Notes: generated by a model not told the origin, from the letters alone. DNA of 64,000 nucleotides from an uncultured Gemmatimonadaceae bacterium (GCA_963829055.1 CAWHHI010000016.1:1088001-1152000); one strand, 5' to 3'. Shown: positions 2,188 through 61,382, counted from the stretch's first letter. Program-made: numbers and translations.

Positions 2188-3736
2188 TCATGGCGCGGTG
2201 GTCGCTGTCGCGCGTGCGGCCTGCACCATCCCGCGGATGTCCGTGAGCAGCGAAGCCACGTCGAATACGACGCCGTCCTTGATCGTGTACTTCACGCCGC
2301 CACGCTGAACGAGCTTACCGTTCTCCTCGACCTGCAGCCCGGTCGCGTAGAGCACCTTCATGTTGTGCAGCGGATTGCCGTCCACGACGATGAGGTCCGC
2401 CTTGAAGCCGGGTCGCACGACCCCCGTATTCGTTAGGCCGAGGAGCTTCGCGCCGTTGGATGTCGCGTGCTGGATGACTTCGAGGGGATGGAACCCAGCC
2501 TCCTGCTGCATCTCCATTTCCCGGATCGTCGTGAAGCCGTAGAGCTGGTAGATGAACCCGGCGTCCGACCCCACCGTGACGTTCCCACCGCGACGCGCGT
2601 ACTCCCGCACCCACTGCATCCAGATGCGGTAGTTGTTGCGCCACATGATCTCGTCAGCGGTCGTCCAGTCGAAGTGATAGGAACCGTGTCGTGTCGCGTC
2701 GGGCTCGAAGTTCTGCATTACCTGCGGCAACGCGTAGTCGCGAAACCAGGGCTGCGTCCTCGCGCGCTGCAGGTCGCGATTCGCTTCGTAGATCGCGAAC
2801 GTCGGGTCCCAGGTCATGCCATGCGCGAGCATCGTGTCGAGCACCGCGGACAGCCGCGTCGAATCCGCCTGCCGCCAGATGTCGCCTGCCCAGCGGAATC
2901 GGTCGAGCTCGTTGTCGTAGTTGTACGAATCGGGAAAATTCTGCGGACCGGGCGTCGCCGCATCGGGAATGCCGTACCAATGCTCGATGCTGCGCACACC
3001 CAGTCGCGCCGCGTCGAGCGCGTCGAGTTCCTGAAGCTTCATGTCTGTCGCGATAGGGAGCCCCTGCCGCTTCGCTTCGTCGGCGATGGCTTCCCAGACA
3101 TCCGGCCGGTTGATGAACACCTTGAGGCCGAGCGCGCCCTGCTGCTTGAGGCGACGCACGAGCGCGTGAGCCTCGTCAGGCGTGTTCGCGGCCGCCACCG
3201 CGTACGGGATGATGGTCGGGGCGGCGATCTTGTTTTCGGCCGAGAGTCGCGCATGCGCGACGATGGTGTCGATGCCTTCCGTCGATCCAGGATCTCGAAC
3301 GGTCGTGATGCCGTGCGCAAGCCAGAGTTTGTAGACGTAGTCCTTGGGCATTGGCTTGCCGCCGCGACTGAACTGGATGTGGCCGTGCACATCGATGATC
3401 CCGGGCATCACCGTCATCCCTGTGCCGTCGATGACGCGATCGGCACTCCCGGTGATGCGGCGATCTCCGGGGACGCTGCTACCGGAGAATTCCGACGGCC
3501 GTGACGGCTCGATCGCGACGATCGTGCTGCCTTGCACGAGAATGTCGAACGGTCCACGAGTCGGATTGCCCGCGCCATCGATCACATTCGCGTTGCGGAT
3601 GAGCAGACGCGCATAACGTTGGCCCGTCGACCGTGCGGGCGCTTGGCGCCTGAGCAACGGTATGGGCAGCTGACAGGCTGGTAACGAGGACCGCAAGCGC
3701 GACTCGAATAGCGGCGGTCCGACGAGCGATAGGCAT
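2188..3736 (-). CDS. Secreted amidohydrolase family protein (frameshift near 3640)
   Basis: Motifs MPGIIDVHGH, SIEHWYG, GSDAG and ADLIVVDGNP. The signal peptide MPIARRTAAIRVALAVLVTSLSAAHTVAQ lies in a neighbouring frame starting at 3736. Confidence 0.85.
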
Positions 3737-3927
3737 GGGGGCCCGCAGGGTTTGGATAGTGAACAAGGTGCACTCGCGCCCGATCGTTGACGAGTGGGGA
3801 TCGAGCATGACATCGCCTTGCGAGCTCGACCACTCGACCACGGAAGCGCTTGGTGGAATGAAAGGTGCTCGGCTGCCCCGTGGGCGGCGCACGACGTGTC
3901 GCCCATGGACATGAACGGGTAACACCC

Positions 3928-4857
3928 ATGGCACAGTTAGTCCGAAGCGCTCGAGGCGCAGTCATCGCACTCGTGACCCCGTTGGCGCTCGCATTCCTCT
4001 CGGCGTGCAACAACGATGACGATTCGCCGACAGGTACCGGTAGCAGCACGCAGATCGTGTTCTCGTCGGATCGGAACTCGACTGACGGGAGTCTCGATTT
4101 GTATTCCGCGAACGCGGACGGCTCGGATGTGCGGCGGCTGACCACGAGTCCTGAAGACGACTACGAGCCTTCGTGGTCGTCGACCGGGCGCATCGCGTTC
4201 ACGTCCTCACGTGACGGCAACGACGAGATCTACTCCATGAACGCGGATGGATCGGACGTCAAACGTCTCACGAATAACACGTTCTTGGACGAATTGCCGT
4301 CGTGGTCACCGGACGGCTCACGCATCGCGTTCACGAGTCGTCGTGATGGCAATCTCGAGATCTACGTCATGAACGCTGACGGAACCGGGCAGACACGGCT
4401 GACGAATTCGCCCGCCACGGAAACCGGGCCGCACTGGTCGCCGAACGGTTCGCGCATCGCCTTCCAAACGGATCGCGATGCCAACAACTTCGAGATCTAC
4501 ATGATGAATGCCGACGGCACGGCGCCGACTCGTCTGACGAACAACCCGGGCGTCGATCTCTTCTCGTCATGGGCGCCCGACGGCCAGCGCTTCGCGTTCC
4601 AGTCGACGCGCGACAACCTGACTACCGGCAGCACCGAGATCTACACCTCGAACGTCGACGGCACGGGTATAACGCGACTGACGCAGAATTCGTTCTTGGA
4701 CAACTATCCGCAGTGGTCGACGGATGGCAAGCGCATCGCCTTCCATTCCAACCGCGATGGGAATTCCGAGATCTACACGATGGCGGTGAATGGATCGGAC
4801 GTCGTGCGCGTGACGAACAACGCGGCGTCCGACGTCTTCGCAGCGTGGCGGCCATAA
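3928..4857 (+). CDS. TolB-like/PD40-repeat lipoprotein
   Basis: Lipobox FLSAC followed by about six repeats of roughly 44 aa (EIYxMNADG...RLT...PxWSPDGxRIAF). Confidence 0.85.
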   Translation: MAQLVRSARGAVIALVTPLALAFLSACNNDDDSPTGTGSSTQIVFSSDRNSTDGSLDLYSANADGSDVRRLTTSPEDDYEPSWSSTGRIAFTSSRDGNDEIYSMNADGSDVKRLTNNTFLDELPSWSPDGSRIAFTSRRDGNLEIYVMNADGTGQTRLTNSPATETGPHWSPNGSRIAFQTDRDANNFEIYMMNADGTAPTRLTNNPGVDLFSSWAPDGQRFAFQSTRDNLTTGSTEIYTSNVDGTGITRLTQNSFLDNYPQWSTDGKRIAFHSNRDGNSEIYTMAVNGSDVVRVTNNAASDVFAAWRP

Positions 4858-4923: not shown

Positions 4924-6171
4924 ATGCCCGTAGCCGACCACCGCTCACCCGCCCTTCCCCGACGCATCCTGCTCGCCGACGCCGACGCGTTCTTCGTCGC
5001 GGTGGCGCGGCTCGTCGACCCCGAAGGCGCAGGCCGCGCGCGCCTGTTGATCGTCGGCGGCGCACCAGGTAGTCGCGGTGTCGTCTGCTCCGCGTCATAC
5101 GAAGCGCGTCGCTTCGGCGTGCGGTCCGCGATGCCGATCTCGCGCGCGCTGCGGCTCTGCCCCGGCGCCATGTGCGTGCCCGTCCCACGGTCCGCATGCT
5201 CGGTGAAGAGCCGCGAGATCGCCACGGTCCTGGCGCGGTTCGCGCCAGTCGTCGAGTGCGCGAGCATCGATGAGTGGTACCTCGACCTCACCGGCACCGA
5301 GGGCGTGTACTCGGGCCGTACGGTCGAAGACGTTGCGCTGTCCATTCGCGCCGCCGTGCAGGCGGAGACGGGCCTGACGATCTCGCTTGGCGGCGGGACG
5401 TCGCGCCTCGTCGCCAAGCTCGCGGTCGAGCTCGCGAAGTCCAAGCCCGGCCGGCCGACCGCCGGCGTGTTCGTCGTGCCTAACGGCGGTGAGGAGGAGT
5501 TCCTTCAGCGCTTCGAGCTGGGTGATCTGCCGGGGGTGGGCCCGAAGTTCCGCGAGCGACTCGACCGGCTCGGCATGCGCACGGTGCGCGACGTCGTCCC
5601 GCACGACATCCCGACGCTCACGCGCATCGTCGGCGAGCGCGAAGCGGCGTGGCTCTGGGAGCGTGTACGCGGCATTGATGCTACGCCGGTGTCCGAGCGT
5701 GACGTCCCCAAGGGCTTGAGCCGCGAGGACACGTTCGAGCACGACGTTGAAAGCGACGAGGATCTGGAGCGCGAGCTGTTGCGGCTCGTCACGCGCGTCG
5801 CGTCGGACCTGCGCGAGCAGGATCTCGCCGCTCGCACGGTCACGGTCAAATTGCGCGACGCGGACTTTCGCACGCGTCAGGCAAGTCGCACGCTCCCACA
5901 CCCTGTCATCGCCGACCGCGTGATCCTCGCGACGGCGCGCGCGCTGCTCGCCCGCCTGCGTCGCGAACGGCGCGTCAGCGCCCGCCTGTTGGGAGTGGGG
6001 CTCTCGTCGCTCGACGTGCCTGATCAGGCCGCGCAGCTCTCGCTGTTCGAGACGCCGGGGGCGTCGCTCGAGACGGCGCGTGATCGCGCACTCGCCACCG
6101 CGGTCGACCGACTGCGGGCGAAGTTCGGTGACCGGGCCATCGTGCCGGGTGGCCTCACTCGTCCAACATAG
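4924..6171 (+). CDS. dinB: DNA polymerase IV (Y-family)
   Basis: Motifs ILLADADAFF, SASYEARRFGVRSAM, SIDEWYLD and LPGVGPK, plus the clamp-binding motif QLSLF. Confidence 0.95.
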   Translation: MPVADHRSPALPRRILLADADAFFVAVARLVDPEGAGRARLLIVGGAPGSRGVVCSASYEARRFGVRSAMPISRALRLCPGAMCVPVPRSACSVKSREIATVLARFAPVVECASIDEWYLDLTGTEGVYSGRTVEDVALSIRAAVQAETGLTISLGGGTSRLVAKLAVELAKSKPGRPTAGVFVVPNGGEEEFLQRFELGDLPGVGPKFRERLDRLGMRTVRDVVPHDIPTLTRIVGEREAAWLWERVRGIDATPVSERDVPKGLSREDTFEHDVESDEDLERELLRLVTRVASDLREQDLAARTVTVKLRDADFRTRQASRTLPHPVIADRVILATARALLARLRRERRVSARLLGVGLSSLDVPDQAAQLSLFETPGASLETARDRALATAVDRLRAKFGDRAIVPGGLTRPT

Positions 6172-6198: not shown

Positions 6199-6924
6199 TC
6201 AGCGGCCTTGTGCGACGGCGTGCAGCTCGTCGCTCCCGACCGTCGCGTTTTCCGCCGACGCGTCGAACGCGTGCCTAACGAGACCATCGGCGAGCTCGGC
6301 TCCCGTCAGCGAATGCAGGCTGCCGGCAAGTCGGTCGGCGCCCACGACCCGCGCGACCGCCGCCACCCCGTTCGCAACGGCGGCGCTGACGCGTTCCAGC
6401 GGGCGAGCCTCGTCACGACCCGGGCCCGTGATGAACGACGGCCGAGCGATCGTGTACGGCAGCCCGCTCGCACGCAACAACGACTCCGCACGCCACCGGG
6501 CCGAGAGATACGGATTCGATGCGTGCTCGCGGACACCGAGGGCGGACAGATAGATGAAGCGGGGCTTGCTGCCTGACGCGACCGACGCCCGGATCAGCAT
6601 GGCGGTGAGCCCGAAGTCGATGGCCTCGTAGCTCTCCGCCGCCTCGCCGCGCGCGGCAGACTCCCGGCGCCGCGCGCGGGTGGTGCCCAGCAGCGAGAAG
6701 ACGTGCGTCGGCTGGAGCGTCGAAAGCGTGTGCACCATCTCCGCATCGCCCCACGGCGAGGAGTCCACCGCAGCGCCCATGGTCTCGAACCGCTGGCGCC
6801 ATTCGTCCAGCCGCCGCGAATCGGGACGCACGTGCGCGACGGTTCGCACGCCGCGAGCCACCAGCACGCGAACGACTTCGCGACCCGTGTACCCGGTGGC
6901 CCCAGCGACGAAAGCGATTTGCAC
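6199..6924 (-). CDS. NAD(P)H-binding atypical SDR/epimerase family protein
   Basis: Rossmann motif VAGATGYTG, plus YLSARWRAE and RPSFITG. Confidence 0.85.
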   Translation of the reverse strand: MQIAFVAGATGYTGREVVRVLVARGVRTVAHVRPDSRRLDEWRQRFETMGAAVDSSPWGDAEMVHTLSTLQPTHVFSLLGTTRARRRESAARGEAAESYEAIDFGLTAMLIRASVASGSKPRFIYLSALGVREHASNPYLSARWRAESLLRASGLPYTIARPSFITGPGRDEARPLERVSAAVANGVAAVARVVGADRLAGSLHSLTGAELADGLVRHAFDASAENATVGSDELHAVAQGR

Positions 6925-7016
6925 GTGATGCGGAAACGAAAGGGTGGGACTCGCTATGGCGCGTTAGGCTCCGATGCGAGCAGAGCGAGTCAGCCGCGCG
7001 TCAGGCGCGCGTCACG

Positions 7017-8807: not shown

Positions 8808-9602
8808 GAGTTCGTCCCTCCTCTGCTGCGCGGCGCCGCGGGTTGTCGCCAGAAGAACGGCCTCGCGTTACGCGCCTCGGGCGACTTCGATTCGTCGTAG
8901 CCGCCGGTGACCATCGACCGAATGGAGTACGGGTCCACGGCGAACACCATGACCACGTGGACCACCGTGAGCGCGACGAGCGCCAGCATGATGAGGAAGT
9001 GCCAGTAGCGCGCCCAGACGTAGCCGCCGAATAGCCGCGGTGAGCGGCGCGAACTGAACCGGCTTCCAGATCGCGATACCGGTGAGCACGGCGAGCGCGC
9101 CGAGAATCGGCATCGAGAAGTAGGCGGATTTCTGCAGCGCGTTGTGCTTCCCCTGGTGCGGATGATCCGGCCGCGCGAAGACGTAGAACTTGATCATCTC
9201 CCAGCTGTCGCGGATGTCCCCGCGCCGGGGCACCAGGTCGCGCCACTCGCCGTGCAGGTAGATGAAGCCGACGTAGACCAGACCGTTCAGGAACAGCAGC
9301 CACATCGCCGCGAAATGCCAGTTGCGTGCGCCTGCGAGCCAGCCGCCGAACGTCAGGCTGGACGGGATCGGCTTTCCGGCAAACGGATAGCAGCAGAACG
9401 ATTCACCGCGGCGCGCGAAGGCTGGATAGGCGTTGAAGATGCGGAGCCCCGTCGTGACCATGAGGCCGAGGGCCACGACGTTCACCCAGTGCGTGACGCG
9501 AACGATCCAGTGGTGCCGCGCCGCACGCCGACGAACGCGTGGCGTCGTTGCGGCGCGCGCATCGTGGGTGTCGCCTAACGCCTGTCCGGCCGCTGTCGTC
9601 AT
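8804..9602 (-). CDS. Cytochrome b/b6-domain membrane subunit (Ni-hydrogenase cytochrome b-like), frameshift near 9030
   Basis: VRVTHWVN, ARNWHFAAMW and KHNALQK, continuing as ARYWHF...VVHVVMV in ORF 8804..8989. It overlaps the start of the molybdoenzyme gene. Confidence 0.85.
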
Positions 9603-10894: not shown

Positions 10895-12275
10895 ATGCCC
10901 ATCGCCACCATCAATCCCGCAACAGGCGAGACGCTCCGCGTTTTCGACGCGCTGAGCGACAGCGATCTCGACTCGCGTCTCGAACGAGCCGTCCACGCAT
11001 TTCAGCACTGGCGCATCACACCGGTCGCGGATCGCGCCGCGGTTGTTTCTCGCGCCGGCGCAATTCTCGAACGCGAAAAGGATCGCTACGGGCGTCTCAT
11101 GACGCTCGAGATGGGCAAGCCACTCAAGGCAGCCGTCGAGGAAGCCGCGAAATGTGCGCTCGCGTGTCGCTACTACGCCGAGCACGCGAGCGCGTTCATG
11201 GCGCCGGAGCACGTCGCCGGCGACGATGTGCTCTACCAGCCGATCGGCCCCGTGCTCGCGATCATGCCGTGGAACTTCCCGTTCTGGCAGGTCGTCCGCT
11301 TCGCCGCGCCCGCGTTATGTGCCGGCAACGTCGGCCTGCTGAAGCACGCGTCCAACGTTCCGCAGTGCGCGCTCGCACTCGAGGAAATATTCAGCGAGGC
11401 GGGAGCGCCGGACGGGTGTCTTTCAGACACTGCTCGTCGGCTCCGATCGCGTCGATGGCATCATCAGTGATCGTCGCATCGCCGCCGTGACGCTCACGGG
11501 AAGCGAGCCTGCTGGCCGACAGGTGGCCGCGACCGCCGGACGAAACATCAAGAAAACGGTCCTCGAGCTCGGCGGGAGCGATCCTTTCATCGTCATGCCG
11601 TCGGCCGACATTGAAGCCGCCGCGCGCGTCGCCGTGAAAGCACGCACGATCAACAACGGGCAATCCTGCATCGCGGCCAAGCGCTTCATCGTTCACGACC
11701 GAGTCGCCGACGACTTTACGCAACGCTTCGTGAACGGCATGCGCGCGCTGTCGGTGGGTGATCCGATGTCGGGCGACACCGATATCGGCCCGCTCGCCAC
11801 CAGGCAGATCGCGGAGGACCTCGAGAAGCAGGTTGACGAAAGTGTGCGACGTGGCGCGAAAGTGCTCACCGGCGGAAAGCGAAAGTCCGGCCCGGGGAAT
11901 TATTTCGAGCCGACGGTGCTCACGGACATTCCCGTCGATAGCCCTGCCTACCGCGACGAGATGTTCGGTCCGGTGGCATCCCTCTTTCGTGCCCGCGACA
12001 TCGACGACGCCATTCGCCTCGCGAATGACACGACGTTCGGCCTCGCATCCGCCGCATGGACGCGCGATGAGGCGGAAGCCGACCGATTCATCCGCGATAT
12101 CGAAGCAGGGTCTGTCTTCATCAACGGCATGGTGGCGTCCGACCCGCGCTTCCCGTTCGGCGGCGTGAAGCACTCAGGCTACGGCCGCGAGCTCGGGCCA
12201 TGGGGACTTCGGGAGTTCGTGAACGTGAAAACCGTTAGGCGTCAGACCCCACCGGCGAGCGCGAACACGGAGTGA
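10895..12275 (+). CDS. NAD(P)-dependent succinate-semialdehyde dehydrogenase-like aldehyde dehydrogenase (frameshift near 11420)
   Basis: IATINPATGE, IMPWNFPFWQ and KHASNVP, then LELGGSDP, NNGQSCIAAKR, EMFGPV and PFGGVKHSGYGRELG. Confidence 0.92.
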
Positions 12276-12362: not shown

Positions 12363-12391
12363 CCTTAATTTGTCGTTGGCAGCCTAACGCG

Positions 12392-14194
12392 TCAGCGGCC
12401 GATCACGCGCCGCCACCATGACGGGCGCGCCGTTTCCGCTCCGTTCGAGTCCGACGACTCCACGAGACGCGCGTGCGCCTCGGCCGCCTGCATGAGTGCT
12501 CGCCATTCCGCCTTCATCACCGTAGCGTCCGGAAAGCGCTGCTCGACATCAGGCGCCAGCCCGCGGCTGAGCCACGCCGCGAATTCCGGCTCGAAGTCGC
12601 TGAGGTCGAGACGCCCGGAAAGCTGCTGTGCGAGAATCGCCGGACCGGTTCTCCCAGGGAACGGCGCGTGGCCGCGAAGCACGTACACGACGATCGCCGC
12701 GACCGCGAAGCAGTCGACGCCCGGGCCCTGCGCTTCACCGAGCAACTGCTCGGGAGCGGCGAACGCCGGCGTACCACTGGCGCCACCAGCGTCTTCGCCC
12801 GCGACCTTCGCGATGCCGAAGTCCGTGATGCGCCAGCGCCGATAGCGATCGATGAGAATGTTTTCCGGCTTGAGGTCGCGATGGATGATGGAGTTCGAGT
12901 GCGCGGCAACCAGCGCATCGAGCACCGCTTCGATCTGCGGCGCGATCTCGGCGAACGGGCGCGGCCCGTTGCGCGTGATGAGATCAGCGACAGACCCGCC
13001 CTCCGCCAACTCCATCGTGTACCACGACACGTCGCCACGACTGTCCCAGTCGTAGATGGGTACGATCGCCGGATGTGCGAGCTGCGCCGCGAGTCGTGCT
13101 TCGCGCCGAAAGCGCGCCACGGCCGCGTCGTCGCTGGCGACGACCGGATGCAGCATCTTGAGCGCGACTTCGCGCTCGAGCGAGAGATCGCGGACTCGCC
13201 ACACCGTACCGAACGTGCCCTTTCCGAGCATCGCCAGCACGTCGTAGTCGTCACCCACAGCCCAGCGAAGCCGCGCTTCTTCCGACTGCCATTCTTTGTC
13301 CGGGGTGATACCGCTACTGACGATCACGCTTCGCGACGAGGAAGAGCGATCGAGTGATCGCAGCAGAGACACCATCGAGCGATGACGCTCGCCGGGGTTC
13401 TCGCCGAGCGCGCGGTCGAGTGCGGAGGCGACCGTCTGCGGAACGTCGGGGCGCACGAGTCGCAGCGGCGGCGGGTCGCTCGACGGCGGCAGCTCGCCGG
13501 TGAGCGCAGCAAAGCACGTCGCCGCGATCTGCCACTGGTCGCTGGCGGGAGTCGGCGCCCAGCCGCCCACGGCCCACTCGGGCGCCATCGGCGTCCATCG
13601 GCGATCGGGTGCGACGCCGGCCGGAAGGTCGGCGCGCGGAATCGCCCACTGCCAGCCGAGCAGCCAGATGCGTCCAGTGGGAGCAACCCAGATGTGCTCG
13701 GGAGACAGCGCGCCGTGCGCGACGCCAGCATCGTGAAGGTACGCGACCGTCGAGCCGGCCGCGCGCAGCAGGCGCAGCATGTACGGCACGTCCTCGGGCC
13801 CGGTACGCCTAACGTGCGCGCCGACGGTTTCGCCTTCGATCCAGCGCCGCAGGTACCCGGGCCCGCGACGCACGTCGCGGTACTTCGTCCAGTAGTGATA
13901 CGTCGTCGGAATCGACGGATGGTTCCGATGCCCCAGATACCGAGCCTCGGCGGCGAGCCACGCGTTATGCGCCGGGTCCGGCGCGGTCACGAGCGAGAGG
14001 GAGCGGCCGAGCGCGTCGATGATCTCCTGGTAGTGCCGGTACTCCGAGACGACGCCTTCACCGCCCCAGCGCCAGTCCGGCGGGAGCTGCCAGTCAGCCA
14101 GGTGGAGCGGTAGTTCGGTGGTGAGTCGGTTCGGCCGCGGGTGATCCGCGCTCACGCGCATCGCACGCACGCCGTCGACGGGAGTCAGCGCCAT
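12392..14194 (-). CDS. Hanks-type Ser/Thr protein kinase with an N-terminal degenerate kinase domain
   Basis: The C-terminal domain has GKGTFG, VALK, HRDLKPEN, DFG and APE. The N-terminal domain has HPSIP, HGALSPEHI, LLGWQWA, MAPE, SDQWQ and LTGELP. Confidence 0.9.
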   Translation of the reverse strand: MALTPVDGVRAMRVSADHPRPNRLTTELPLHLADWQLPPDWRWGGEGVVSEYRHYQEIIDALGRSLSLVTAPDPAHNAWLAAEARYLGHRNHPSIPTTYHYWTKYRDVRRGPGYLRRWIEGETVGAHVRRTGPEDVPYMLRLLRAAGSTVAYLHDAGVAHGALSPEHIWVAPTGRIWLLGWQWAIPRADLPAGVAPDRRWTPMAPEWAVGGWAPTPASDQWQIAATCFAALTGELPPSSDPPPLRLVRPDVPQTVASALDRALGENPGERHRSMVSLLRSLDRSSSSRSVIVSSGITPDKEWQSEEARLRWAVGDDYDVLAMLGKGTFGTVWRVRDLSLEREVALKMLHPVVASDDAAVARFRREARLAAQLAHPAIVPIYDWDSRGDVSWYTMELAEGGSVADLITRNGPRPFAEIAPQIEAVLDALVAAHSNSIIHRDLKPENILIDRYRRWRITDFGIAKVAGEDAGGASGTPAFAAPEQLLGEAQGPGVDCFAVAAIVVYVLRGHAPFPGRTGPAILAQQLSGRLDLSDFEPEFAAWLSRGLAPDVEQRFPDATVMKAEWRALMQAAEAHARLVESSDSNGAETARPSWWRRVIGR

Positions 14195-21400: not shown

Positions 21401-21414
21401 GCATAGAGGAAGAA

Positions 21415-27555: not shown

Positions 27556-27587
27556 ACCATGCGGCGTATCGTGACGAGGACCCTAAC

Positions 27588-28832: not shown

Positions 28833-28851
28833 CTCGTGTTAGGTTCCGCGC

Positions 28852-35041: not shown

Positions 35042-35070
35042 CGATCCAGATGTGGCGATCCAGTTCACCG

Positions 35071-40944: not shown

Positions 40945-40947
40945 GGC

Positions 40948-44094: not shown

Positions 44095-44198
44095 GATACT
44101 CCAGGTCTGACGAAGCGACGCAAGACACCACATGCCGCTGCTACCTTCGGGGTCCTGACGGAGTTAGCGGGCTCACGCCCTTCGGGACCTGGAGCACC
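44095..44198 (-). ncRNA. ffs: Signal recognition particle RNA (small bacterial SRP)
   Basis: The minus strand carries the helix-8 motif CCGTCAGGACCCCGAAGGTAGCAGCGG. The terminal stem is GGTGCTCCAGGTC/GACCTGGAGTATC. It sits upstream of dnaX with a TACCTT -10 box just upstream. Confidence 0.9.
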
Positions 44199-45253: not shown

Positions 45254-45388
45254 CCCGGGAACCTAACGTTACAAGCGGCGGATGGGCGAGCGTGGCCGCA
45301 TCGCCACTCCCGCCCATCGCCCATCCCCACACCGGATGCGACGAGTCGCCTAACCAGTGTTCCGCGAGCCGCAGCGCTTCCAGCGCGC

Positions 45389-47171: not shown

Positions 47172-47246
47172 AGCCTCTCCTCGTCATCTCGCGCCGCTTG
47201 TGCGGCGCGGGTCGTGATCGGTCACCAACGCGGTAAGCGAGATCGC

Positions 47247-49363: not shown

Positions 49364-50783
49364 TCAGGTCCATGTCGTCTGGGGCGGCGGCGACGTTCTC
49401 GTACCCGGCCGTACCGGGCATCGGGCGATGCAACCGCACCGCTTTCACGTGCTCGCCTACCGCGGCTGCGGTGTTACCAACGGCGAGCTGCGTGAACAGG
49501 AACTCGAACTTCGCGTCGTAGGCCTTGGCAACGGCTGCCTTCACGTCTTCCGGCAGATCCCAGAGGCGCTGCTTGAACGGGCCGAGCGCTTTTTTCCGCG
49601 TCTTGTAGAAGAACTGCTCGTCCGTGTCAGCCGGTTTGCGCTCGTCCTTGGCGTTCGTCCTGAGCCAGTCGTAGATCTCCTGCCGAAGCGGCGCAGGCAG
49701 ATGATCGAACAGCATGTTCTGGAAGTTCGTCGCCAGGTGAATCTCGGCCGTCTCGGTCCGCGGGAAGTTGTGGAACGCCGTGTCTGGGAGCGTCGACGCG
49801 CCATGCTGGACAGCGCCCGAGAGCCCGTATCGTTCGCGGGCCTCTTTCGAGAGGCGCGCGAGCGTGTCGAGATCGAGCGCGACGTCCGCGATCGAGCCGT
49901 CCGCGAGGACGACGCCCCCATGCGACGTGCCGGACTGCACGCTGATCTTCGACAGACCGTCCGTGCCCGGCGGGCAGCGCTCGGCCAGCGTGCGGTTGAA
50001 GCCGTCCATGAATGCCCGCAGCTCTTCGACGGTGCTGTTCTCCGTTCCGACCTCGCCGATCTCGCCACCGACCGAGATCGTGACCCCCTTCGGCTGCAGC
50101 TCACGCACGTAGCGGGTGATGTCGACGCAGGTCTCGTAGTTCAGCCGTTGCTGCGCCGCGAGATCAGGTTTGGACAGGTCGACGAGCGTGGACGTATCGA
50201 CGTCGATGTTATAGAAGCCGGCCGTGATCGCTTCGAGCGCGAGCTGCTTCACCGCCGCCACTTCGCCGTTAGGGTCCACCGCGAACTTCTTCGCGTTGAC
50301 CTGGAAGTGATCGCCCTGGATGAATACCGGCCCGCGGAAGCCCTCGCGCAATGCAGCCCCGAGCATCACCGACACGTACTCGGCAGGGCGCTGGTCGGTG
50401 TAGCCGATCTCCGACCGGGCAATCTCGAGCAGGAACGCGCCGGCGTTGAGCTTGTTGGCGGTTCGGAAGATCGATCGCGCCGTGTCGTACGCGGCCCCAC
50501 GGACGTTGATGGCGGGAACCGTGAAGCCGTGAAGCTCTCCGCGGCCGCGCGCCATATAGAGCCCGTTGATAGAGGCTGCGCGCACGCCGACGGCCTCACC
50601 AATTTCCCAGATGAGCCATCGGGCGTAGTCCCGCTGCTCGCCGGTCGCGAACACCGCCTCGCGCACCAGGGCGTCCATCTTGGGCGACGCGAGATCTGCC
50701 TCGCGCAATACGGTGACGCGTTCGTTCTTGACGCTGATCGCATCGCCAAGCGGGGACGTCCGCGTCTTCACTTGCTCCGGCAT
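49356..50783 (-). CDS. Class II fructose-bisphosphate aldolase family protein (long form)
   Basis: TVPAIN, FIQGDHF, NIDVDTS, GGEIGEVG, GTSHGG, VQHGAS and IHLAT. Confidence 0.85.
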   Translation of the reverse strand: MPEQVKTRTSPLGDAISVKNERVTVLREADLASPKMDALVREAVFATGEQRDYARWLIWEIGEAVGVRAASINGLYMARGRGELHGFTVPAINVRGAAYDTARSIFRTANKLNAGAFLLEIARSEIGYTDQRPAEYVSVMLGAALREGFRGPVFIQGDHFQVNAKKFAVDPNGEVAAVKQLALEAITAGFYNIDVDTSTLVDLSKPDLAAQQRLNYETCVDITRYVRELQPKGVTISVGGEIGEVGTENSTVEELRAFMDGFNRTLAERCPPGTDGLSKISVQSGTSHGGVVLADGSIADVALDLDTLARLSKEARERYGLSGAVQHGASTLPDTAFHNFPRTETAEIHLATNFQNMLFDHLPAPLRQEIYDWLRTNAKDERKPADTDEQFFYKTRKKALGPFKQRLWDLPEDVKAAVAKAYDAKFEFLFTQLAVGNTAAAVGEHVKAVRLHRPMPGTAGYENVAAAPDDMDLSD

Positions 50784-50888: not shown

Positions 50889-51674
50889 TCACGACTCGTC
50901 AATGCGAATCGTGAGGCCGTCGAATGCCGGTGAAACGCCTCGCGGCAGCTCGGCCTCGAGATCCGCGTGGAAGTTGTCGTGCGTCAGATGCGTGAGGAAC
51001 GTGCGGTCGGCTCCGATCTCACGCGCTGCGCGCACCGCTTCCGGAATGCTCAGGTGCGTCGGATGCTCGGTCCGGAACAGCGCATTGATGACGAGCACCT
51101 TCGCGCCGCGCAGATGCTCCATTGCCGCGGGCGGAATCGTCTTCGCGTCGGTCACGTAGGCGAGCGGGCCAATGCGATAGGCGTACACCGTCATCTTGCC
51201 GTGCGGCACCGGCACCGCGGTCACATCGATGTCGCCGATCGTCACCGTCTCGTCGCCCGCCAGGGGACGCGCGTCCCCCTCCGGCTTCGACGTTCCCGCG
51301 ACGGGACGAATGTTGTCGTCGAAAATATACGGGAATCGCTTCGCGAGGTTCTCGAGCGTCGACGGTGGACCATACATCGGCAGTGGGGCGTCGCGCCTAA
51401 CGGTGATCGCGCGAATGTCGTCCACGCCGTGCGTGTGGTCCGCGTGGTCGTGTGTGAACAGCACGGCGTCCACGCGATCGATGCCGTTCGTCACCAGCTG
51501 CAGCCGCAGTTCCGGCGGCGTATCGATCAGCAGGCGCGTCCCGCGCTCCGTCTCGACGACCGCACCGACACGGGTCCGTCGATCACGCGGGTCGGCGGAC
51601 CGACAGCGGGCGCAATTGCACCCGATCTGCGGGACGCCGAAGCTCGTGCCGGTGCCGAGGAACGTGAGCTTCAC
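50889..51674 (-). CDS. MBL-fold metallo-hydrolase (PhnP-like)
   Basis: LGTGTSFGVPQIGCNC, THDHADHTHG, AYVTD, THLTH and AFDG. Confidence 0.9.
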   Translation of the reverse strand: MKLTFLGTGTSFGVPQIGCNCARCRSADPRDRRTRVGAVVETERGTRLLIDTPPELRLQLVTNGIDRVDAVLFTHDHADHTHGVDDIRAITVRRDAPLPMYGPPSTLENLAKRFPYIFDDNIRPVAGTSKPEGDARPLAGDETVTIGDIDVTAVPVPHGKMTVYAYRIGPLAYVTDAKTIPPAAMEHLRGAKVLVINALFRTEHPTHLSIPEAVRAAREIGADRTFLTHLTHDNFHADLEAELPRGVSPAFDGLTIRIDES

Positions 51675-53193: not shown

Positions 53194-54340
53194 TCAGCGA
53201 CTGGCGCCGATCGGCCGACCGAGTGTCTTGGTCTTTCTCTCGAGACCCGCAATGAGCGAGTCGAACGACTTCTGAAAGCTCGCGAGACCATCGACGAGCA
53301 GCTTCTTCGTGACGTCGTTGAAATCGATCCCGATCTCTGCGAGCTGTTCCATCACGCGTTGCGCTTCCCGCGTGTTGCGATCGACCGTGCGGGCGACGAC
53401 GCCATGGTCCCTGAACGCGTCCATCGTGGCCGGAGGCATCGTATTGACCGTGTCCGGCCCGATGAGCTCCTCGACGTACACCACGTCGCGATACGCGGGG
53501 TTCTTTGCGCTCGTGCTGGCCCACAGCGGACGCTGGAGACGCGCGCCGCGCGCTTGAAGCTTCGGCCCAACGGTCGCTGCTGAACGAGTCGCGGAACAGT
53601 TGATACGCGAGCTGCGCATTTGCCACCGCCGCGCGACCCTTGAGCGCCATCGCACGATCCTTCGTGGCGGGATCTGCCTTTGCGGCGATGGCGTCGAGGC
53701 GCTTGTCGACCTCGGAATCGACACGACTCACGAAGAAGCTCGCCACCGACGCGATGCCGGCAATGTCCTTGCCCGCCGCCAGGCGGTCCTCGAGGCCACC
53801 CATGTACGCCTCGATCACCTGCCGATGCGCGTCAATGGAAAACAGCAACGTGATGTTCACGTTGATCCCATCGGCGATGAGCGAGCGGACCGCACGCGCG
53901 CCCTCGGCGGTTCCCGGAATCTTCACCATCACGTTAGGCCGATCGACCGTCGACCAGAGCCGCCTCGCCTCGGCCACCGAGGCCGCCGTGTCGCTGGAAA
54001 CGCCGGGCGAGACCTCGATCGATACGTAGCCGTCGCCGCCGTTTCCGGTGCGGTACGTGTCGGCGAAGATGTCGCACGCGGACCGGACGTCGGTCGTCTC
54101 GACGAGCTCGAACAGGTCCCAGGCGGTCAATCCGGGCGGCGCCGATTTGATCTGATCGTCGTACTCGTCGCCCTCGCCGAGCGCCTTCTCGAAGATGGTC
54201 GGATTCGACGTCATGCCGGACAGCGCGTCCTCGCGGATCAGCCGCGCGAGCTCGCCATTTCGGAGAATCGTCCGGTCGATGAAATCCAGCCAGACCGATT
54301 GGCCGGCTTCGTGTAGCTCGGTAAGCCGATTGGTCGTCAT
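53194..54340 (-). CDS. tal: Transaldolase (frameshift near 53560)
   Basis: GQSVWLD, GMTSNPTIF, VSIEVSP, MVKIP, NITLLFS and SFFVSRVD, then QRPLWASTSAKNP and TVNTMP. Confidence 0.93.
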
Positions 54341-54510: not shown

Positions 54511-56485
54511 ATGACCGCGAAGATCGTCGCGACGCACCGTGCGGCCCTCCGCTGGTGGCGCTCGCGCTCGCTGGCAGCGCAGCTCGTCCTCACAAATCTG
54601 GGCGTCGTGGTGCTCTGGGCGGCGACGACGCGGCAGATCGTTTCCCTCCAGAGCGGACGTCGTGAAGCCGCCGAGAATGCGGCCGTGCGCGCTGGGGCGG
54701 CAGTGCTCGTCACGGCGCGAATCGAGCCGGCGCTCGCGACCCTGGAGACGGGCCAACGAGGGTTCGTGCTCACGGGCGACTCGGCGTTCCTCGCTCCGTA
54801 TCGGCGCGGTCAGGCAGAGATCGCCACCACACTCGACTCACTGGCGAAGCTCGCGCGCAGCAACGAGGCGCTGACCTCCGCCACGAGCAGCGTGGATCAA
54901 GCGATCGGTTCGTGGGCCGAGGCGGCCAATCGGCAGTTCGCCGCCCGCGCCGCCGACGCGTCCCGGGATACGGTCGCGGCGCTGCGCGACGACGTCGCGA
55001 TGCTCATGGAGCGTGCGCGCGCGTCGACGAAGGCGCTCGAACGCATCACGCGCATTCAGGCAGAGCAAAGCGAGGCGGAGGCGGCGTCGCAGATCGAGTT
55101 CGACGCTCGCGAGTCGTTACTCGTTCGGCTGCTCCTTCTCGCGATGATCGTGCTCGCCACGACCGCGAGTCTGCGGCGCGTCACCAGCACCCTCGACGCG
55201 ATCGTCTTCGATGCGCGCGCGCTGGCGGCGGGCGACCATCGCGCCGCGGTTCGCTCTGTCGCCGGCGGGAGCCGGGAACTGGGTCAACTCGGTCAGGCAT
55301 TCGGCACGCTCGCGGCCGCGGTTGCCGAGCGCGAAACTGGGCTGCGCGATGACATCCGACAGCTCAAGGAAGTCGAGCGACTGAAAACGGAATTCGTGTC
55401 GACCGTGAGCCACGAGCTTCGCACGCCACTCACGGCCATTCGCGGCGCACTCGGATTGGTGCTCGCGGGAACGACCGGATCTGTTGCGCCGAAGACGCGT
55501 GACCTGCTCCAGATCGGGTTGCAGAATACCGAGCGGTTGATCCGACTCATCAACGACATCCTCGACGTCGAACGCATAGAGGGCGGCCACCTGTTCGTGC
55601 GTCGCGAGCCGTGCGAGCTCGCTGACATCCTGCGCACGACCGTCGAATCGCTGCGCACCGTCGCCATGGAAGCACAGGTGTCGTTGGTGCTCGCAGTGGA
55701 GACGAGCGCGATCGTCACCGGCGACCCCGATCGTCTCGTGCAGGTATTCACGAATCTGATCTCGAACGCCGTACGCTTCTCACCGCGGGGAGAGTCGGTG
55801 ACCGTGGCGCTGCGCACGACATCGACCAGCGTCGTGGTGTTCGTCACCGATCGCGGGCCCGGAATTCCGCTCGAGTTTCGGCGACGCATCTTCGGCAAGT
55901 TCCAGCAGGCGGATCCCGCCGGTTCCGCGGGCGGCGCTGGTCTCGGGCTCGCGATCGTGCAGGCGATTGTCGAGCGACACGGCGGCTCCATTCGCTTCGA
56001 TAGCGCACCGGGCCACGGCACGACGTTCATCACCGAGCTCCCCTACACCGCTCCGAGCGCGTCGATTGGGTCTGCGGCGTTAGGCCGTCATCGCCTGCTC
56101 GTCGTCGACGACGATCGCGACATGCTGAGCGTGCTGCGCTCGTTATGCGAATCGGTCGGAGCCGTCACCGCGGTGGGCTCGCCTGACGAGGCATGGCGGA
56201 TGCTCATGCAATCGCCGTTCGACGCGATCGTGATCGATCCGTGGGCGCCCGGGTCGCCGGGCATGGACCTCGTGAAGCGGTTGCGTCAACTGCTCGACGT
56301 ACGCTGACGTCCCGGTGCTCGTGTTCTCGTCCCGCGAGTTCTCCGACGAGGAGCTTCAGGGCATCACGCTCGCGCCGTCGCACGCGTTCGTGAAGGCGCG
56401 CGATCGCGAGCAGGATCTGCTGCTTCGTCTCAAGGCCGTGCTGGCGGTCCGCCGACCGCGACGTCCTGTCGCGGTGCCCGCGTGA
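54511..56485 (+). CDS. Hybrid CHASE3-HAMP-HisKA-HATPase-REC sensor kinase (frameshift near 56295)
   Basis: ETGQRGFVLTGD (CHASE3), [21 protein letters not shown] and LLVVDDD. The REC tail VPVLVFSS...FVKA lies in the next frame and ends at 56485. Confidence 0.88.
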
Positions 56486-56565
56486 GGCACTCGATGCAGG
56501 GCACTCGGAGAGGCATCAGACGTTCGACCCCGAGATGATGCCTGTGTCGTTAGGCCGGAGAAAGA

Positions 56566-58512
56566 CTAGCTGGCAGCGCGCTCGCGCCAGAGCGGGATCT
56601 TGCCCGCCAGTGTTCGGAAGCCGACAGGTTTCGCGACGTAGTCGAGTGCGCCGGCACGAAGGGCGCGCACCTGATCGCCCTCGCCTGCGTTGCCGGTGAT
56701 GAACACGACGGCATAGGCGTCCGGACGCTCCTCGCGCAGGCGCTCGTGCACCGAGTGTCCGTCGAGTCCCGGGAGGTCGACATCGAGGAGCACGAGCGGG
56801 CGCCGGCCTTCGGTTCGGAAGCCCATCAGGGCCTCGAGCGCGGCTTCGCCATTCGCGTACGCGCGGAAGCTCAATCCCGAAGCGCGCAGGACGTACTGCA
56901 TCATGTCCGACAGCGCGGCGTCGTCCTCGATGAGGATGACCTGCGGCGCCAACCCCGCCTCCTGTTGACGCCAGCGCCTAACGGGCGCCGCTCGGTCCTG
57001 CCGGGCGATCTCGATGGCTTCCTCGGCGGCGCGCCGCAGCGCGGTCACGTCTGCCGCCACCTCGGACGTATCCACGATGCCGCAGCGCCACACTGGCGCG
57101 CCCTCGGCACGGCCGACCACGAGCGCTTCGAACAATGACTCCGCGACCTCCGCGTCGCCTTCGAGGACCGCCAGCAGCGCGACCCCGTCGTGATAGCCGA
57201 CCACGCTCGACGAGCCGGCGACGGCGTTCGCGATACGCTGCGTCTCGCGCAGCCATCCCATGGCGGTATCGCCAGCGAGATCATCCACGTCCGGCCGCAC
57301 GATGGCCATCACGATACCGCGACCGTGTTCCGCGGCGGAGCCGACGAACGCTCCGACGTCCGCCGTCGTTCGCGGTGGCAACGGCAACCCGGTGCCCGGA
57401 TGGCGGCCCTCGCTCAGCCGCACTACGCGCTGGCGCTCGAGGTGGCGCGCGATACAGGCACGGAGATCAGGAGCCGAGATGGGCTTCGCGAGGAAGTCAT
57501 CGACGCCCGCGCGTCTCGCCTGCTCCTGCGTGCGCGCTTCGGTGTCGGCGGAGATCAGCACGATGGGAAGATCGCGATACGCCGGTAGCGTCCGCAGTTC
57601 TCGCGCAAGCTCGATACCGGAGACGTCGCCCATGCGTACATCCATGACCAGCAGCGACGGCGCGGTAGCCGCGAGATGCTGGTGAAGATCGCTCGGCGTA
57701 TCGCACGTCATGCTGCGCACGCCCTCACTCTCCAGCAGCAGCTGAACGATCGTCAGGATGGATGGGTCGTCATCGAGCACGAGGATCGTAGCCCCCGCGG
57801 TCGAGCTGCCAAGCGACAGGCGATCGGCGAGATCGAACAACGTCCCGAGCTCATCGTCCTGGTCCACCATCGCGATGCCGTCTCCCCCGGCGGCGCCGTG
57901 ATCCGGAGGCGCCCCGGGTTCGGCGAGCGCGATGACAGGAACGTTCGCCGCCGCGGTGAGCTCGCGCGTCGCGACGATGTTCTGGGCCGGAATGACCACG
58001 ACGTGCGGCGCCAGCTCGCGGAGCGAGATCGCGGTGAGATCAGCCGCGCGTCCCGACGACAGCTGGTAGCCGCGAAGGGCAGCTTCGGCACGCAGACCAC
58101 GTGAGTAGGCGGCGGGAACGTCGACGAGCATCATGCGACGGCGCGACACGCCAACATGGCCGACCCCTACCTCCGCCGACATCGAGAGCCGCAGCGCGCT
58201 CACGAAATGGCCGATGATCGTGGACCGCTGCGCGCGCTCGATCGACGGGTCCTGTTCCCAACCCGCGACGCGCTGCTCCAGCTTCGCCGCGAGACGACTC
58301 GCTTCGATGAAGCCGTAGCTCCCGGCTGTCCCGTGGACGCGATGGAGCTCGCGACGAAGCGCCTCTATCGTCTCGGGTGCCGCGGCGTCGACGACGAGCT
58401 GCTGCGCGAGGTCGTCCAGCGTCGCAATGGTGCCCGCGCTGGTCTCGCGGAAGCGCTCGCGCAACGCCCGCAGCGCATCACTCGCCCGCGCGACGGTCTG
58501 GGCGTTGGCCAT
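56566..58512 (-). CDS. Hpt / multi-receiver signalling protein with degenerate GGDEF-like segment
   Basis: LHRVHGTAGSYG (Hpt), then REC (LDDD...MDVRM...KP), then an HPGTGLP segment, then REC (IEDD...LDVDLPGLDG...KP). Confidence 0.82.
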   Translation of the reverse strand: MANAQTVARASDALRALRERFRETSAGTIATLDDLAQQLVVDAAAPETIEALRRELHRVHGTAGSYGFIEASRLAAKLEQRVAGWEQDPSIERAQRSTIIGHFVSALRLSMSAEVGVGHVGVSRRRMMLVDVPAAYSRGLRAEAALRGYQLSSGRAADLTAISLRELAPHVVVIPAQNIVATRELTAAANVPVIALAEPGAPPDHGAAGGDGIAMVDQDDELGTLFDLADRLSLGSSTAGATILVLDDDPSILTIVQLLLESEGVRSMTCDTPSDLHQHLAATAPSLLVMDVRMGDVSGIELARELRTLPAYRDLPIVLISADTEARTQEQARRAGVDDFLAKPISAPDLRACIARHLERQRVVRLSEGRHPGTGLPLPPRTTADVGAFVGSAAEHGRGIVMAIVRPDVDDLAGDTAMGWLRETQRIANAVAGSSSVVGYHDGVALLAVLEGDAEVAESLFEALVVGRAEGAPVWRCGIVDTSEVAADVTALRRAAEEAIEIARQDRAAPVRRWRQQEAGLAPQVILIEDDAALSDMMQYVLRASGLSFRAYANGEAALEALMGFRTEGRRPLVLLDVDLPGLDGHSVHERLREERPDAYAVVFITGNAGEGDQVRALRAGALDYVAKPVGFRTLAGKIPLWRERAAS

Positions 58513-59053: not shown

Positions 59054-59066
59054 CGAGTCGCGTCGC

Positions 59067-61382
59067 CTAACGCGGCAGCGTGGCTCCGTGCGACTCGCCG
59101 ACGCTTGCGTCGACGGTGTGAGCAAAGTGAACCGGTAGCCCCACCGAGAAGGTGGTACCGACGCCGTAGACGCTCTCCACCTGCACTTTGCCGCCCAGCC
59201 GCTCGAGCAGCTTGCGCGTGATGCTCAGTCCGAGACCAGTGCCGCCGAACTCTCGCGTCCGCGACTGATCGATCTGGCGGAAGTCTTCCCAGATCGCGTC
59301 GAGGTGTTCGCCCTTGATGCCGATGCCGCTGTCGCTGACGGCGATGTGCACGTGATCATCCGCGCGGGTCGCGTCCAGTCGCACCCAGCCGACGTGGGTG
59401 AACTTCACCGCGTTCGAGAGCAGGTTCAGCAGGATCTGCTTGAGCTTCGTGCGGTCCGTGTAGACGACCATGCCGTCATCCGCGACGCGATACGTCACGT
59501 CCAGGCCTTTCTTGCGGACCATTGGCTCGAGCTGCTGCGCGACCTCGGTCACGACGTCCGCGAGCGGAATCTCCTCGAGGTGCAGCGGCATCTTCCCCGC
59601 TTCGATCTTCGCCAGATCGAGAATGTCATCGATGAGCGCCTGCAGATGCTGGCCAGCCGCACGAATGCGCTCCAGGCTATCGATCTGCTGGAGCGTGACT
59701 TCGCCGAACAGCCGATCGAGCAGCAGCGACGTGTGACCCAGCACCGCGTTGAGCGGCGTGCGCAACTCGTGCGACATACTGGCGAGGAATTCCGACTTCA
59801 AGCGATTCGCGCGCGCCAGCTCCTGTGACTGCCACTGGAGCTTGAGGTTCTGCGCTTCGAGGTCGCTCGTCGCGGCGCGGATGCGCTCTTCGAGCTGCGC
59901 GGAGAATTTCTTGAGCTCCTCGTACAGTCGCTCGTTCTCGACCTGTTTCGTGAGGTCGTGCACGACCGACACGATGACGCTCGGCTCACCGTGCTCGTTG
60001 ATGATCTTGCCGGACACCACCTCGACCGGCAGCTCGCGCCCGCCAGACGGATCGGTGAGCGTCATCCGGGCGCGTCGCGAGATCGCGGTGCCTAACGTGA
60101 ACTCGGAGATGAACGACGTGAACTTCGTGTCGTTGCCGCGAATCGCCTGGATGGCTCCGTAGTTCCGCTTGCCGCCTTCGCGCACCTGGAACAGTCGCTC
60201 GGCCTCGTCGTTCATCATGATGATGTTCGACTGGTCGTCGGTGACGAGGATCGGGTCGGCGACGTTCTCGAGAATGAGGTTCAGCCGATCGCGCTCGCGC
60301 GTCGCCTCGAACTCGGCGAGGCGGACGCGTTGCATCTGCCGCTCGAGCTCGTGCCCCGCCCGACGCAGGTCGGTGACGTCGCGCAGGACCGAGAGCACCG
60401 CGCCGGCGCGTTCCGCCTCGCCATCGAGCGGGTGCGCGAGTACCTCGAACAGCAGGTCGGTGCCCTCACCGGGGTCGACGAGGTTGAGCTCGCGCGGGCC
60501 GCTCTGGAGGCCGCCGGTCATCACCGCGCGCGCGAGGTACGACGTGAACAGCAGGTTGTTCACCTCGACCGCGCGCCGCCGGCCTTCCGAGTCCGAATCG
60601 CGCGTATTGAGCAGACGCTCGGCGCGCGCGTTCTGAACGATGATGTCGTTGGCGGCGTTCGTGATGACGATCGGGTCGGGCAGCGAGTCGATGATGCTCG
60701 TTAGGCGATCACGTTCCTTCGTCGCCCGGTCCGCCGCCTGGCGCACCGCGGTCGCCATGCCCATGCGCGCCAGAATGGGGCCGGCGAACATCGCGACGCG
60801 CGCCAGCGCCTCGACCGTGTCCTCGCCGTGCGTGCCCTCGAGCACGACGACGCCGGCCGGCGCGTGTCCGAACCATTCCTGCTGGCGTGCCGGGCGTGGG
60901 CCGACGCGCAGGCCCACCGGTGTCACGAGGTCGACGGCCCGGGCGAAGGGGACGAGCGGCGGGCCTGCGCGGTCGTCGCCGCGAGGAAGCGGCAACGCGA
61001 TCCAGTCGCGAAACGGGATGCGCGAATCCCACGGCGCACCGGGCTCCGATGAGATCGGGTGCAGCGAAAGCGCGGCGATGACGACCGGATGCGACAGGTC
61101 GCTGATCGATAGCGTTCCCAGCACGTCGCCGTCGTCGAAGCCGACGACGGCGACAGAGGCAAGCGTTTCCAGCGCCGGGTCGAGGAGACGTACGTACCCT
61201 CGACTGGAACCGGACAGCTCACCGAGTCTCGACAGCAGAAACGCCGCCGACGACGCGACGTCCGGAGCCTCAGCGAGCGTCGCGAGGAGCTCGTCGAGGT
61301 CCGTGGCCGCACCGCGCGGCGGAGGCCCGCCGTCAATCAGGTCATGCGGTGGCCTGCTCAAGGCGTCGGCGTAGCTCCGCAT
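59067..61382 (-). CDS. Cytoplasmic GAF-like/PAS-PAS sensor histidine kinase (start uncertain)
   Basis: Two PAS domains (LPDPIVITN and VADPILVTD), [25 protein letters not shown] and GTGLGL. It overlaps or abuts the gvpA stop. Confidence 0.9.

Follow-up and report, generated by a model that had tools for sequence, protein, structure and literature searches.

A hyper-abundant, unpolarised octamer in Gemmatimonadales genomes and a small, predicted AP2-fold protein that may read it

We have analyzed a stretch of 64,000 nucleotides (the window) from an uncultured Gemmatimonadaceae bacterium (GCA_963829055.1, CAWHHI010000016.1:1088001-1152000). In our numbering it is G000:C16:1088001-1152000, part of an assembly of 7.78 Mb in 20 contigs that is 86% complete, and its mnmA gene had its nearest named relatives in Gemmatimonadaceae and Gemmatimonadales records. 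The window carries, among others, dinB, kynA, kynB, iscS, mnmA, dnaJ and dnaX, and scattered over these and other genes is an octamer, GCCTAACG, that an initial annotation had proposed as a genome-wide signature sequence. All of its 31 exact copies were found where that annotation had placed them, 17 on the plus strand and 14 on the minus strand, and the further copies said to keep the core CCTAAC, estimated at about 13, were exactly 13, giving 44 core sites in the window. Actually, the 2 to 3 copies that it had expected by chance were an overestimate, as dinucleotide shuffles gave a mean of 0.89 and a maximum of 6 copies, and none of 100 shuffled windows reached 31. The octamer does supply the rare codons seen in dinB, iscS, kynA, kynB, mnmA and a permease gene, as well as the stop codons of a TolC-like open reading frame (ORF) and mnmA and, judged by the ORF ends, those of a sigma54 activator and a sensor kinase (Table 1).

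Over the whole G000 assembly GCCTAACG was the top octamer in the count of all 8-mers, exceeding the expectations of Markov models of order 1, 2 and 3 by 38, 49 and 19 times. There were 5,004 exact copies (2,457 on the plus and 2,547 on the minus strand) and 7,103 cores, one per 1,086 bp, the commonest core variants being ACCTAACG (827), GCATAACG (583), GCCTAACA (435) and CCCTAACG (428). An assembly artefact or a local effect was ruled out, since copies were present on all 20 contigs and all six congeners of G000 were also motif-rich. Codon usage does not account for this abundance either: called genes held 3,176 copies, against 88 to 119 in ten synonymous-codon shuffles. The imprint on the coding sequence is strong, with 1,863 of the 2,667 TTA codons (70%), 1,305 of the 3,310 Pro-Asn pairs, 307 of the 850 TAA stops and 240 of the 1,752 TAG stops located inside a core. 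Tripeptides of the type Pro-Asn-x had observed to expected ratios of 1.6-2.1, and 1.1-1.3 in the reversed order. No polarity was apparent: in G000 the G-rich strand carried 1,279 of 2,494 sites (51.3%), and 19 samples taken from the G162 chromosome gave 111 versus 114 sites by strand. The proposal of a genome-wide, unpolarised and frame-independent signature was therefore borne out, and the literature searched, with subscription journals outside its coverage, held no description of the octamer among the papers listed, which were judged by title.

The sites tend to avoid each other. Gaps below 100 bp occurred in G000 at 0.15-0.26 of the Poisson expectation, and gaps of 20-200 bp at 0.36-0.43 for the three motif octamers, versus 0.82-1.35 for the other 149 of the 152 abundant octamers. 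In order to control for protein sequence, we analyzed the 13,781 positions able to hold the octamer synonymously. Their occupancy was 3.6% with a neighbour at less than 50 bp, rose to 25% for one at 200-300 bp and to 37-40% for one at 500-1,000 bp, and dropped again in cold regions. The occupancy pattern was equal for neighbours in the same and in the opposite orientation, so that the depletion of close pairs is orientation-blind. Pair density was back to normal by about 350 bp, and the sites showed neither helical nor any other short periodicity. This distance-dependent and orientation-independent occupancy suggests that a single site is enough for a few hundred bp, whichever way it points.

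The sites are also conserved. Four congeners, whose proteins are about 80-83% identical, kept 28 of 30 residue-compatible sites in their orthologs, versus 3 of 267 compatible empty positions that held one. The corresponding values for the orthologs of genome G014 were 11 of 23 and 38 of 194, and the motif-poor relatives, compared at nine loci, had no site in 696 compatible positions. Besides, same-genus comparisons found rare codons retained in 29 of 37 cases if they lay in a site and in 218 of 1,275 if they did not, so that the octamer, like the cyanobacterial HIP1 (GCGATCGC), is conserved beyond codon conservation. These data show that it is under selection at the DNA level in either orientation, and that its benefit saturates with a neighbour within about 300-400 bp.

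Within the order Gemmatimonadales the distribution was patchy. Apart from the congeners, several other genera in three families were motif-rich, and the split reaches inside genera: genus g46 had three rich genomes and one poor, and genera g28, g26 and g77 were graded. The spectrum of core variants was the same in G014 and G040. Outside the order, none of 45 genomes was enriched. Motif-poor genomes held the octamer mainly as arrays at a spacing of about 600 bp, and no alternative enriched word was found in 20 samples of their ComEC regions; a single apparent excess, of ACTAGT, was a local tandem repeat. Two megaplasmids of Gemmatirosa kalamazoonensis KBS708 (NZ_CP007130.1 and NZ_CP007129.1) carried 701 and 778 copies respectively, and 20 core sites were found on a 21-kb element that has an integrase-like ORF. 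The G000 assembly itself has three long motif-free stretches (C6:6854-55038, C11:7377-44055 and C6:591809-623330), cleanly marked by motif density, with housekeeping genes of foreign look; they are probably chimeric assembly joins. Some intergenic regions hold short tandem repeats with a period of 7, of CCCTAAC type in G040 (L567, L569) and of GTGACTA type in G022 (L016). Genome G162 showed arrays of 3-5 octamers with a period of 11 bp, about one helical turn (C1:1965280, 3375034 and 4510870; L627, L628, L629), and no gene common to their neighbourhoods was found.

A candidate for the protein that reads the octamer is encoded outside the window, at G000:C3:271467-271769. It is a basic protein of 100 amino acids from a family of standalone bacterial proteins of 70-135 amino acids. 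Five to six motif variants lie within 240 bp upstream of its gene, which is in the top 3 of 6,806 genes for upstream sites, and the only core pair with a period of 8 bp in 7.78 Mb is located at -56/-48 of its start. An upstream array of 2-6 copies was present in all seven genus members, and the homolog in G014 had five sites upstream. A profile search of 24 family relatives found the gene in 12 of 12 motif-rich genomes (7 genera) and in none of 12 motif-poor ones (12 genera). With an enrichment ratio of 0.4 as the cut-off, a single-protein search of 92 family genomes gave a strong homolog in 12 of the 17 above it and in 0 of the 75 below; with the cut-off moved to 1.0, it was in 9 of 13 and 3 of 79. 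Without the unpublished poor genome G013, the counts for poor genomes are 0 of 11 and 0 of 74. No homolog appeared in the 45 genomes from outside the order. Upstream of the gene there is, then, a tandem motif array that is conserved, and within the family gene and motif occur together. Contigs from RNA libraries covered it in three of three soil runs (two studies), which speaks of presence in such libraries, not of expression level or start site.

The predicted structure of this protein is beta-beta-beta-alpha (core pLDDT about 90) with disordered basic tails. The top matches with VIA-align were chains of the Toxoplasma mitoribosome (Z 8.3, 7.9 and 7.4), which presumably include AP2-domain proteins. 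The AP2-DNA complex of Plasmodium SIP2 (6sy0) gave Z 6.3 with a root mean square deviation of 3.3 over 61 aligned residues, WRINKLED1 gave Z 4.7, and 10% of the neighbour cluster in the Atlas was PF00847. Three strands and a helix are what AP2/ERF and ApiAP2 domains have, although the candidate differs from these in being small, standalone and bacterial. Its Lys/Ala-rich tails resemble those of histone-H1-like bacterial proteins. No account of a standalone bacterial AP2 protein was found among the papers listed in the literature searched, judged by title. One of the roles considered by the initial annotation, a site for a nucleoid protein, has gained a concrete candidate, and the upstream arrays, the co-occurrence and the AP2-like fold are consistent with a small protein of DNA-binding type that usually accompanies the octamer and may read it as a chromosome-wide mark. 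A second AP2-like family, with two domains in tandem, was seen in G173, G097, G080, G156 and G086 (L551-L555), and four of these five carriers are motif-rich.

We have found the octamer in viral contigs as well. Scans for two nearby sites gave 120 and 76 viral loci, and a triple pattern added 2. Most of the site-pair loci held only the sites forced by the search; at least 5 sites were present in 15 of 120 and 9 of 78, some of which were attC arrays or repeats of low GC, and the two triple-pattern loci were discarded as low-GC chance occurrences. Dispersed sites in both orientations were found in tailed-phage contigs L405 and L374 (one phage, 3.3-3.8 cores/kb), L288 (2.75), L235 (1.85), L261 (1.44), L233 (1.16) and L245 (1.12). 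For comparison, the density was 0.91 cores/kb in G000 and about 1.9 in G014, so that the densest phage has about four times the density of G000. L405 had 13 sites on the plus and 14 on the minus strand with no gap below 90 bp, versus 7.9 expected, and the flanking-base preferences of the phage sites equal those of the host. Among 78 distant relatives of L405, together 852 kb, there were 2 exact copies. A homolog of the AP2 protein turned up in one viral contig only, L626, which has terminase and portal genes and 17 core sites versus 1.7 expected. Its spectrum has moved toward CCTAACA, the form of most of its sites, and an inverted core pair lies at -49/-32 of the homolog gene.

The explanation that we favour, although we regard the case as evenly poised, is that a sequence-specific chromatin protein, in most cases the AP2-fold candidate, has the octamer as its address, that the coat it forms benefits intracellular DNA, and that phages exploit this by copying the address. 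A cytoplasmic protein would bind the octamer, in most carriers the small standalone AP2-fold protein with basic tails. The AP2 sheet would read the octamer, the Lys/Ala/Arg tails would contact the neighbouring DNA, and each bound site would cover a few hundred bp. Selection would keep about one site per kb wherever synonymous or stop codons permit, and the protein would cap its own level through the motif array upstream of its gene. The weakest step is that the coat would favour the DNA inside the cell, keeping it expressed or protected, and for this reason resident plasmids would retain the motif, and phages would carry it at high density or supply a homolog themselves. A drive based on transformation should act weakly on phage DNA, so the benefit is more likely intracellular. 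The richest lineages without the AP2 gene would have another reader or a recent loss. Sequence-specific chromosome proteins of bacteria such as SlmA, Noc and MatP have tens of sites, not thousands. More tentatively, Gemmatimonadales could have a sequence-addressed chromatin in which an AP2-fold protein on about 7,000 octamers has reshaped codon and stop use and licenses resident DNA, with phages copying the code more densely or carrying an AP2 reader of shifted specificity.

A number of observations weigh against the AP2-fold protein in this role. The gene was picked post hoc, from the overlap of 102 small basic proteins with the list of close pairs, the 0.4 cut-off was set after the counts were seen, and related genomes are not independent. 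Foldseek gave no match at E<=0.001 for the model, the structural scores are middling and ribosome-associated folds score alike. No Pfam family matched the candidate at E<=1, PF00847 matches nothing in G000, and a PDB sequence search with the candidate profile gave nothing meaningful. Among enriched genomes, a single query found no homolog in G162, G154, G122 and G210, the four richest of the 92, nor in G108; a 43-row profile found none in G162, G122, G154 and G210, a 64-row profile none in G162, G122, G108 and G040, and PF00847 nothing in G162, G122, G154 and G040. G036, G038 and G040, also enriched, have no candidate gene, and weak profile matches in G122, G162 and G040 were shadow frames. 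Conversely, in a sister family 13 genomes carry a strong homolog but little of the motif (ratio 0.08-0.31), no other enriched word was found in five sampled gene-bearing poor genomes, and in g77 the gene was present in 4 of 4 genomes at ratios of 0.27-2.5. With rich genomes lacking the gene and poor genomes carrying it, enrichment across the order does not require the protein, nor does the protein suffice for it. Its upstream array could be explained by regulation through another reader. Finally, the phage contigs were selected by a two-site requirement and their hosts are unproven: the L405 virion protein had no match in 201 genomes of the order, and the sole organism-named homolog among the 120 matches listed was from a Gemmatimonadaceae assembly, at 45% identity.

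The first alternative, which we consider improbable but the strongest of those left, is a DNA uptake sequence (DUS), i.e. a competence pilus that prefers DNA with the octamer and is saturated by one site per fragment, with molecular drive spreading it. Excerpts of PMC2817400, PMC7811141 and PMC2397512 describe the DUS of Neisseria and the uptake signal sequences (USS) of Pasteurellaceae as non-palindromic, unpolarised, present at about one per kb inside genes in several frames, with a tripeptide imprint and without benefit from a second nearby site. The octamer agrees in all these properties, including the orientation-independent saturation and the excess of Pro-Asn-x, so that the density, spacing and conservation expected of the DUS-like signal that the initial annotation had suggested do fit. 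The machinery is also widespread (ComEC in 40 of 41 relatives, ComEA-type matches in 5 of 5, a FimT-like pilin in 194 of 201 genomes). G000 has pilins, with comEA and fimT frameshifted in the assembly. Uptake systems of this kind have a dedicated receptor pilin that recognises the sequence (ComP, predicted PpdA/ComN). Competence genes are nearly ubiquitous here, but no pilin was found to track the motif: among five genomes no pilin family was common to the enriched and missing from a poor one, and in a 40-row FimT alignment the column that separates best, with Leu in 23 of 26 poor and 2 of 14 rich, was chosen post hoc; both G000 and G162 have Leu. DUS are reported in the cited part of PMC2397512 as absent from recently acquired genes. 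The three foreign-looking segments of the assembly do lack the octamer, but it is not scarce in mobile DNA, being on the two megaplasmids, the integrase-like element and phage contigs, of which the densest belongs to the phage without a homolog in 201 genomes of the order. Inverted pairs of the DUS-terminator type are rare, the octamer is patchy within genera and tied to a cytoplasmic-type protein, and the array upstream of the AP2 gene is left unexplained by uptake. As regards pilins, G000 has at C12:393820-402854 a type IV pilus locus whose two major pilins are nearly identical, orphan pilins are located at C3:516826, C11:105390 and C16:947619, and the frameshifted FimT-like pilin (C8:164914-165336) ends in a motif of GRxR type.

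Less probable still is another intracellular reader, acting in defence or DNA modification and requiring a site within a few hundred bp, with the AP2 protein as regulated companion or second reader. It would account for the enriched genomes without the AP2 gene and for the gene-bearing poor ones, and is compatible with the enrichment in phages. Nevertheless, no candidate was found: PF01555, PF02384 and PF00145 gave no match in G000, PF01507 (DndC/SspD-type) none in G000 and G173, and a search for a second reader through autoregulatory arrays, 51 loci in G162, genus g46 and family f3, revealed no small gene shared by their neighbourhoods. Besides, the AP2 homolog borne by a phage is accompanied by its own shifted motif spectrum.

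We give little credit to a methylation-linked motif of the HIP1 kind or to a neutral bias of mutation or repair. HIP1 is described in the cited parts of PMC5861425 and PMC13756078 as a hyper-abundant octamer under selection within and between genes, with a long open function for which roles in chromosome structure and uptake have been proposed, and in abundance, conservation and selection inside and between genes our octamer is similar. However, GCCTAACG differs from its own reverse complement and is thus not palindromic, it shows no short periodicity and has a candidate reader. The methylation that the initial annotation had considered, for HIP1 the work of cognate orphan methyltransferases, found no support, as the three methyltransferase-type families PF01555, PF02384 and PF00145 are those without a match in G000 (86% complete) and the methylome of KBS708, whose plasmids carry the octamer, has only RGATCY, ATGCAC and CCAGN7TCA as N6-methyladenine motifs (PMC3974934), a list that leaves room for m5C and exotic marks. 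A mutation bias acting site by site would not yield the distance-dependent occupancy.

Even fainter is the prospect that the octamer is a by-product or target of an integron integrase, derived from the attC core. The consensus of this core is GTTRRRY. The two share letters: in 34 cassette-type pairs of viral contigs the reverse-complemented downstream core is GCCTAACG-like (G in 91% before the core and in 76% after it), and the ~600-bp arrays of motif-poor genomes are where most of their octamers lie. But the TIGR02249 integrase was in 125 of 201 genomes of the order, rich and poor alike, and the genomic sites are single and synonymously coded with pairs under 200 bp depleted, unlike paired inverted cores 40-130 bp apart. 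At C20:208041-208958 G000 has a divergent integron integrase (TIGR02249, 265.7 bits), and about 60-90 bp past its end lies an inverted core pair. Viral contigs L253, L254, L268, L243 and L249 carry attC-type cassette arrays, and the integrase of L249 resembles that of G000.

A Chi-type recombination site for AddAB/RecBCD is largely refuted: the octamer marks resident DNA as Chi does, phages above their host in Chi density are known from the cited part of PMC12315714 (LLS, 2.5x) and G000 has two PF12705 matches, but the polarity that would have made it Chi- or KOPS-like is missing in G000, G162 and L405 alike, the repulsion of sites is orientation-independent, the excess reaches 49x, and PF12705 was found in only 70 of 201 genomes, not in many of the richest (g49 0/1, g45 0/2, g38 0/1, g41 0/1) and within g46 in the motif-poor G150 only. 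Overall, the octamer imprints its genome like DUS or HIP1 and yet departs from what defines each of these systems: from DUS by its presence in mobile DNA, from HIP1 by palindrome and methylation, from Chi by polarity and from attC by pairing.

All the sites of the window are given in Table 1, in which the genic and intergenic classes are approximate because the assembly contains frameshifts and the gene caller covered 72% of it. The TolC-like gene (window 19912-21400) appears as two overlapping ORFs, probably due to one such frameshift. A bacterial small signal recognition particle RNA (RF00169), at 44097-44193 on the minus strand, adjoins dnaX and was the only Rfam family in the window. In the rest of G000, CTAG is strongly avoided (3,962 observed versus 13,660 expected) and a second abundant family consists of longer palindromic repeats around GTCATTCCGAGCG. 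A dif-like site at C16:560811 (minus strand), about 20 kb away from both a XerD-like gene and the maximum of the cumulative GC skew, has a different sequence, ruling out the octamer as dif.

Table 1. Exact copies of the octamer GCCTAACG and variants of its core in the window (positions from the first nucleotide of the window).
Position	Strand	Site	Gene or context	Codons
838..845	+	core variant TCCTAACG		
1235..1242	-	core variant CCCTAACG		
2431..2438	-	exact	amidohydrolase-like gene	GGC CTA ACG
5478..5485	+	exact	dinB	CCT AAC
6273..6280	+	exact	ORF 6199-6924	GTT AGG
6962..6969	-	exact	outside called genes	
9573..9580	+	exact	cytochrome-b-like gene	GCG TTA GGC
12233..12240	-	exact	aldehyde dehydrogenase gene	GTT AGG
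12382..12389	+	exact	intergenic, directly beyond Ser/Thr kinase gene end	
13807..13814	+	exact	Ser/Thr kinase gene	GTT AGG
16180..16187	-	exact	histidine kinase gene	CCT AAC
18085..18092	-	core variant CCCTAACG		
21395..21402	-	exact	TolC-like ORF	TAG stop
22994..23001	+	exact	ABC ATPase gene	CCT AAC
23240..23247	+	core variant ACCTAACG	same ABC ATPase gene as 22994	
24858..24865	+	exact	permease gene	AGC CTA ACG
25589..25596	+	core variant GCCTAACA	permease ORF holding 24858	TAA stop
27096..27103	+	exact	permease gene	CCT AAC
27581..27588	+	core variant CCCTAACG		
28837..28844	-	core variant ACCTAACA	intergenic	
30241..30248	-	exact	kynA	ACG TTA GGC
30651..30658	-	exact	kynB	GCG TTA GGC
30727..30734	+	core variant TCCTAACG	kynB	
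31135..31142	+	core variant ACCTAACG	ABC ATPase gene	
33145..33152	+	exact	iscS/nifS	CCT AAC
34405..34412	-	exact	mnmA	GTT AGG
35036..35043	+	exact	mnmA	TAA stop
35647..35654	+	exact	dnaJ	ACG TTA GGC
39389..39396	-	exact	pgsA-like gene	CCT AAC
40194..40201	-	exact	mglB-like gene	CCT AAC
43143..43150	+	exact	dnaX	TCG TTA GGC
45261..45268	+	core variant ACCTAACG	intergenic	
45348..45355	+	core variant GCCTAACC	intergenic	
46084..46091	+	core variant GCCTAACA	YihY-family gene	
47245..47252	+	exact	sigma54 activator (gene on -)	TAG stop
50267..50274	-	core variant CCCTAACG	ORF 49356-50783	
51395..51402	+	exact	MBL (metallo-beta-lactamase)-fold hydrolase gene	GTT AGG
53932..53939	-	exact	gene call uncertain	
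56078..56085	-	exact	histidine kinase gene	GCG TTA GGC
56548..56555	-	exact	intergenic	
56976..56983	+	exact	response-regulator gene	GTT AGG
59065..59072	+	exact	sensor kinase (gene on -)	TAG stop
60090..60097	+	exact	sensor kinase gene ending at 59065	ACG TTA GGC
60699..60706	-	exact	sensor kinase gene ending at 59065	CGC CTA ACG

The hyper-abundant motifs of bacteria with which we have compared the octamer are few (DUS, USS, HIP1 and Chi), and the function of HIP1 has been open for decades. The octamer adds one more, in an abundant soil phylum. It is of practical use in Gemmatimonadales for marking the host of phages and plasmids and for flagging contamination of assemblies, and it has a phage counterpart with a predicted shift of specificity. 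With a cultured carrier (KBS708), gain and loss within genera, a candidate reader and this phage counterpart, the role of hyper-abundant genome words becomes directly testable.

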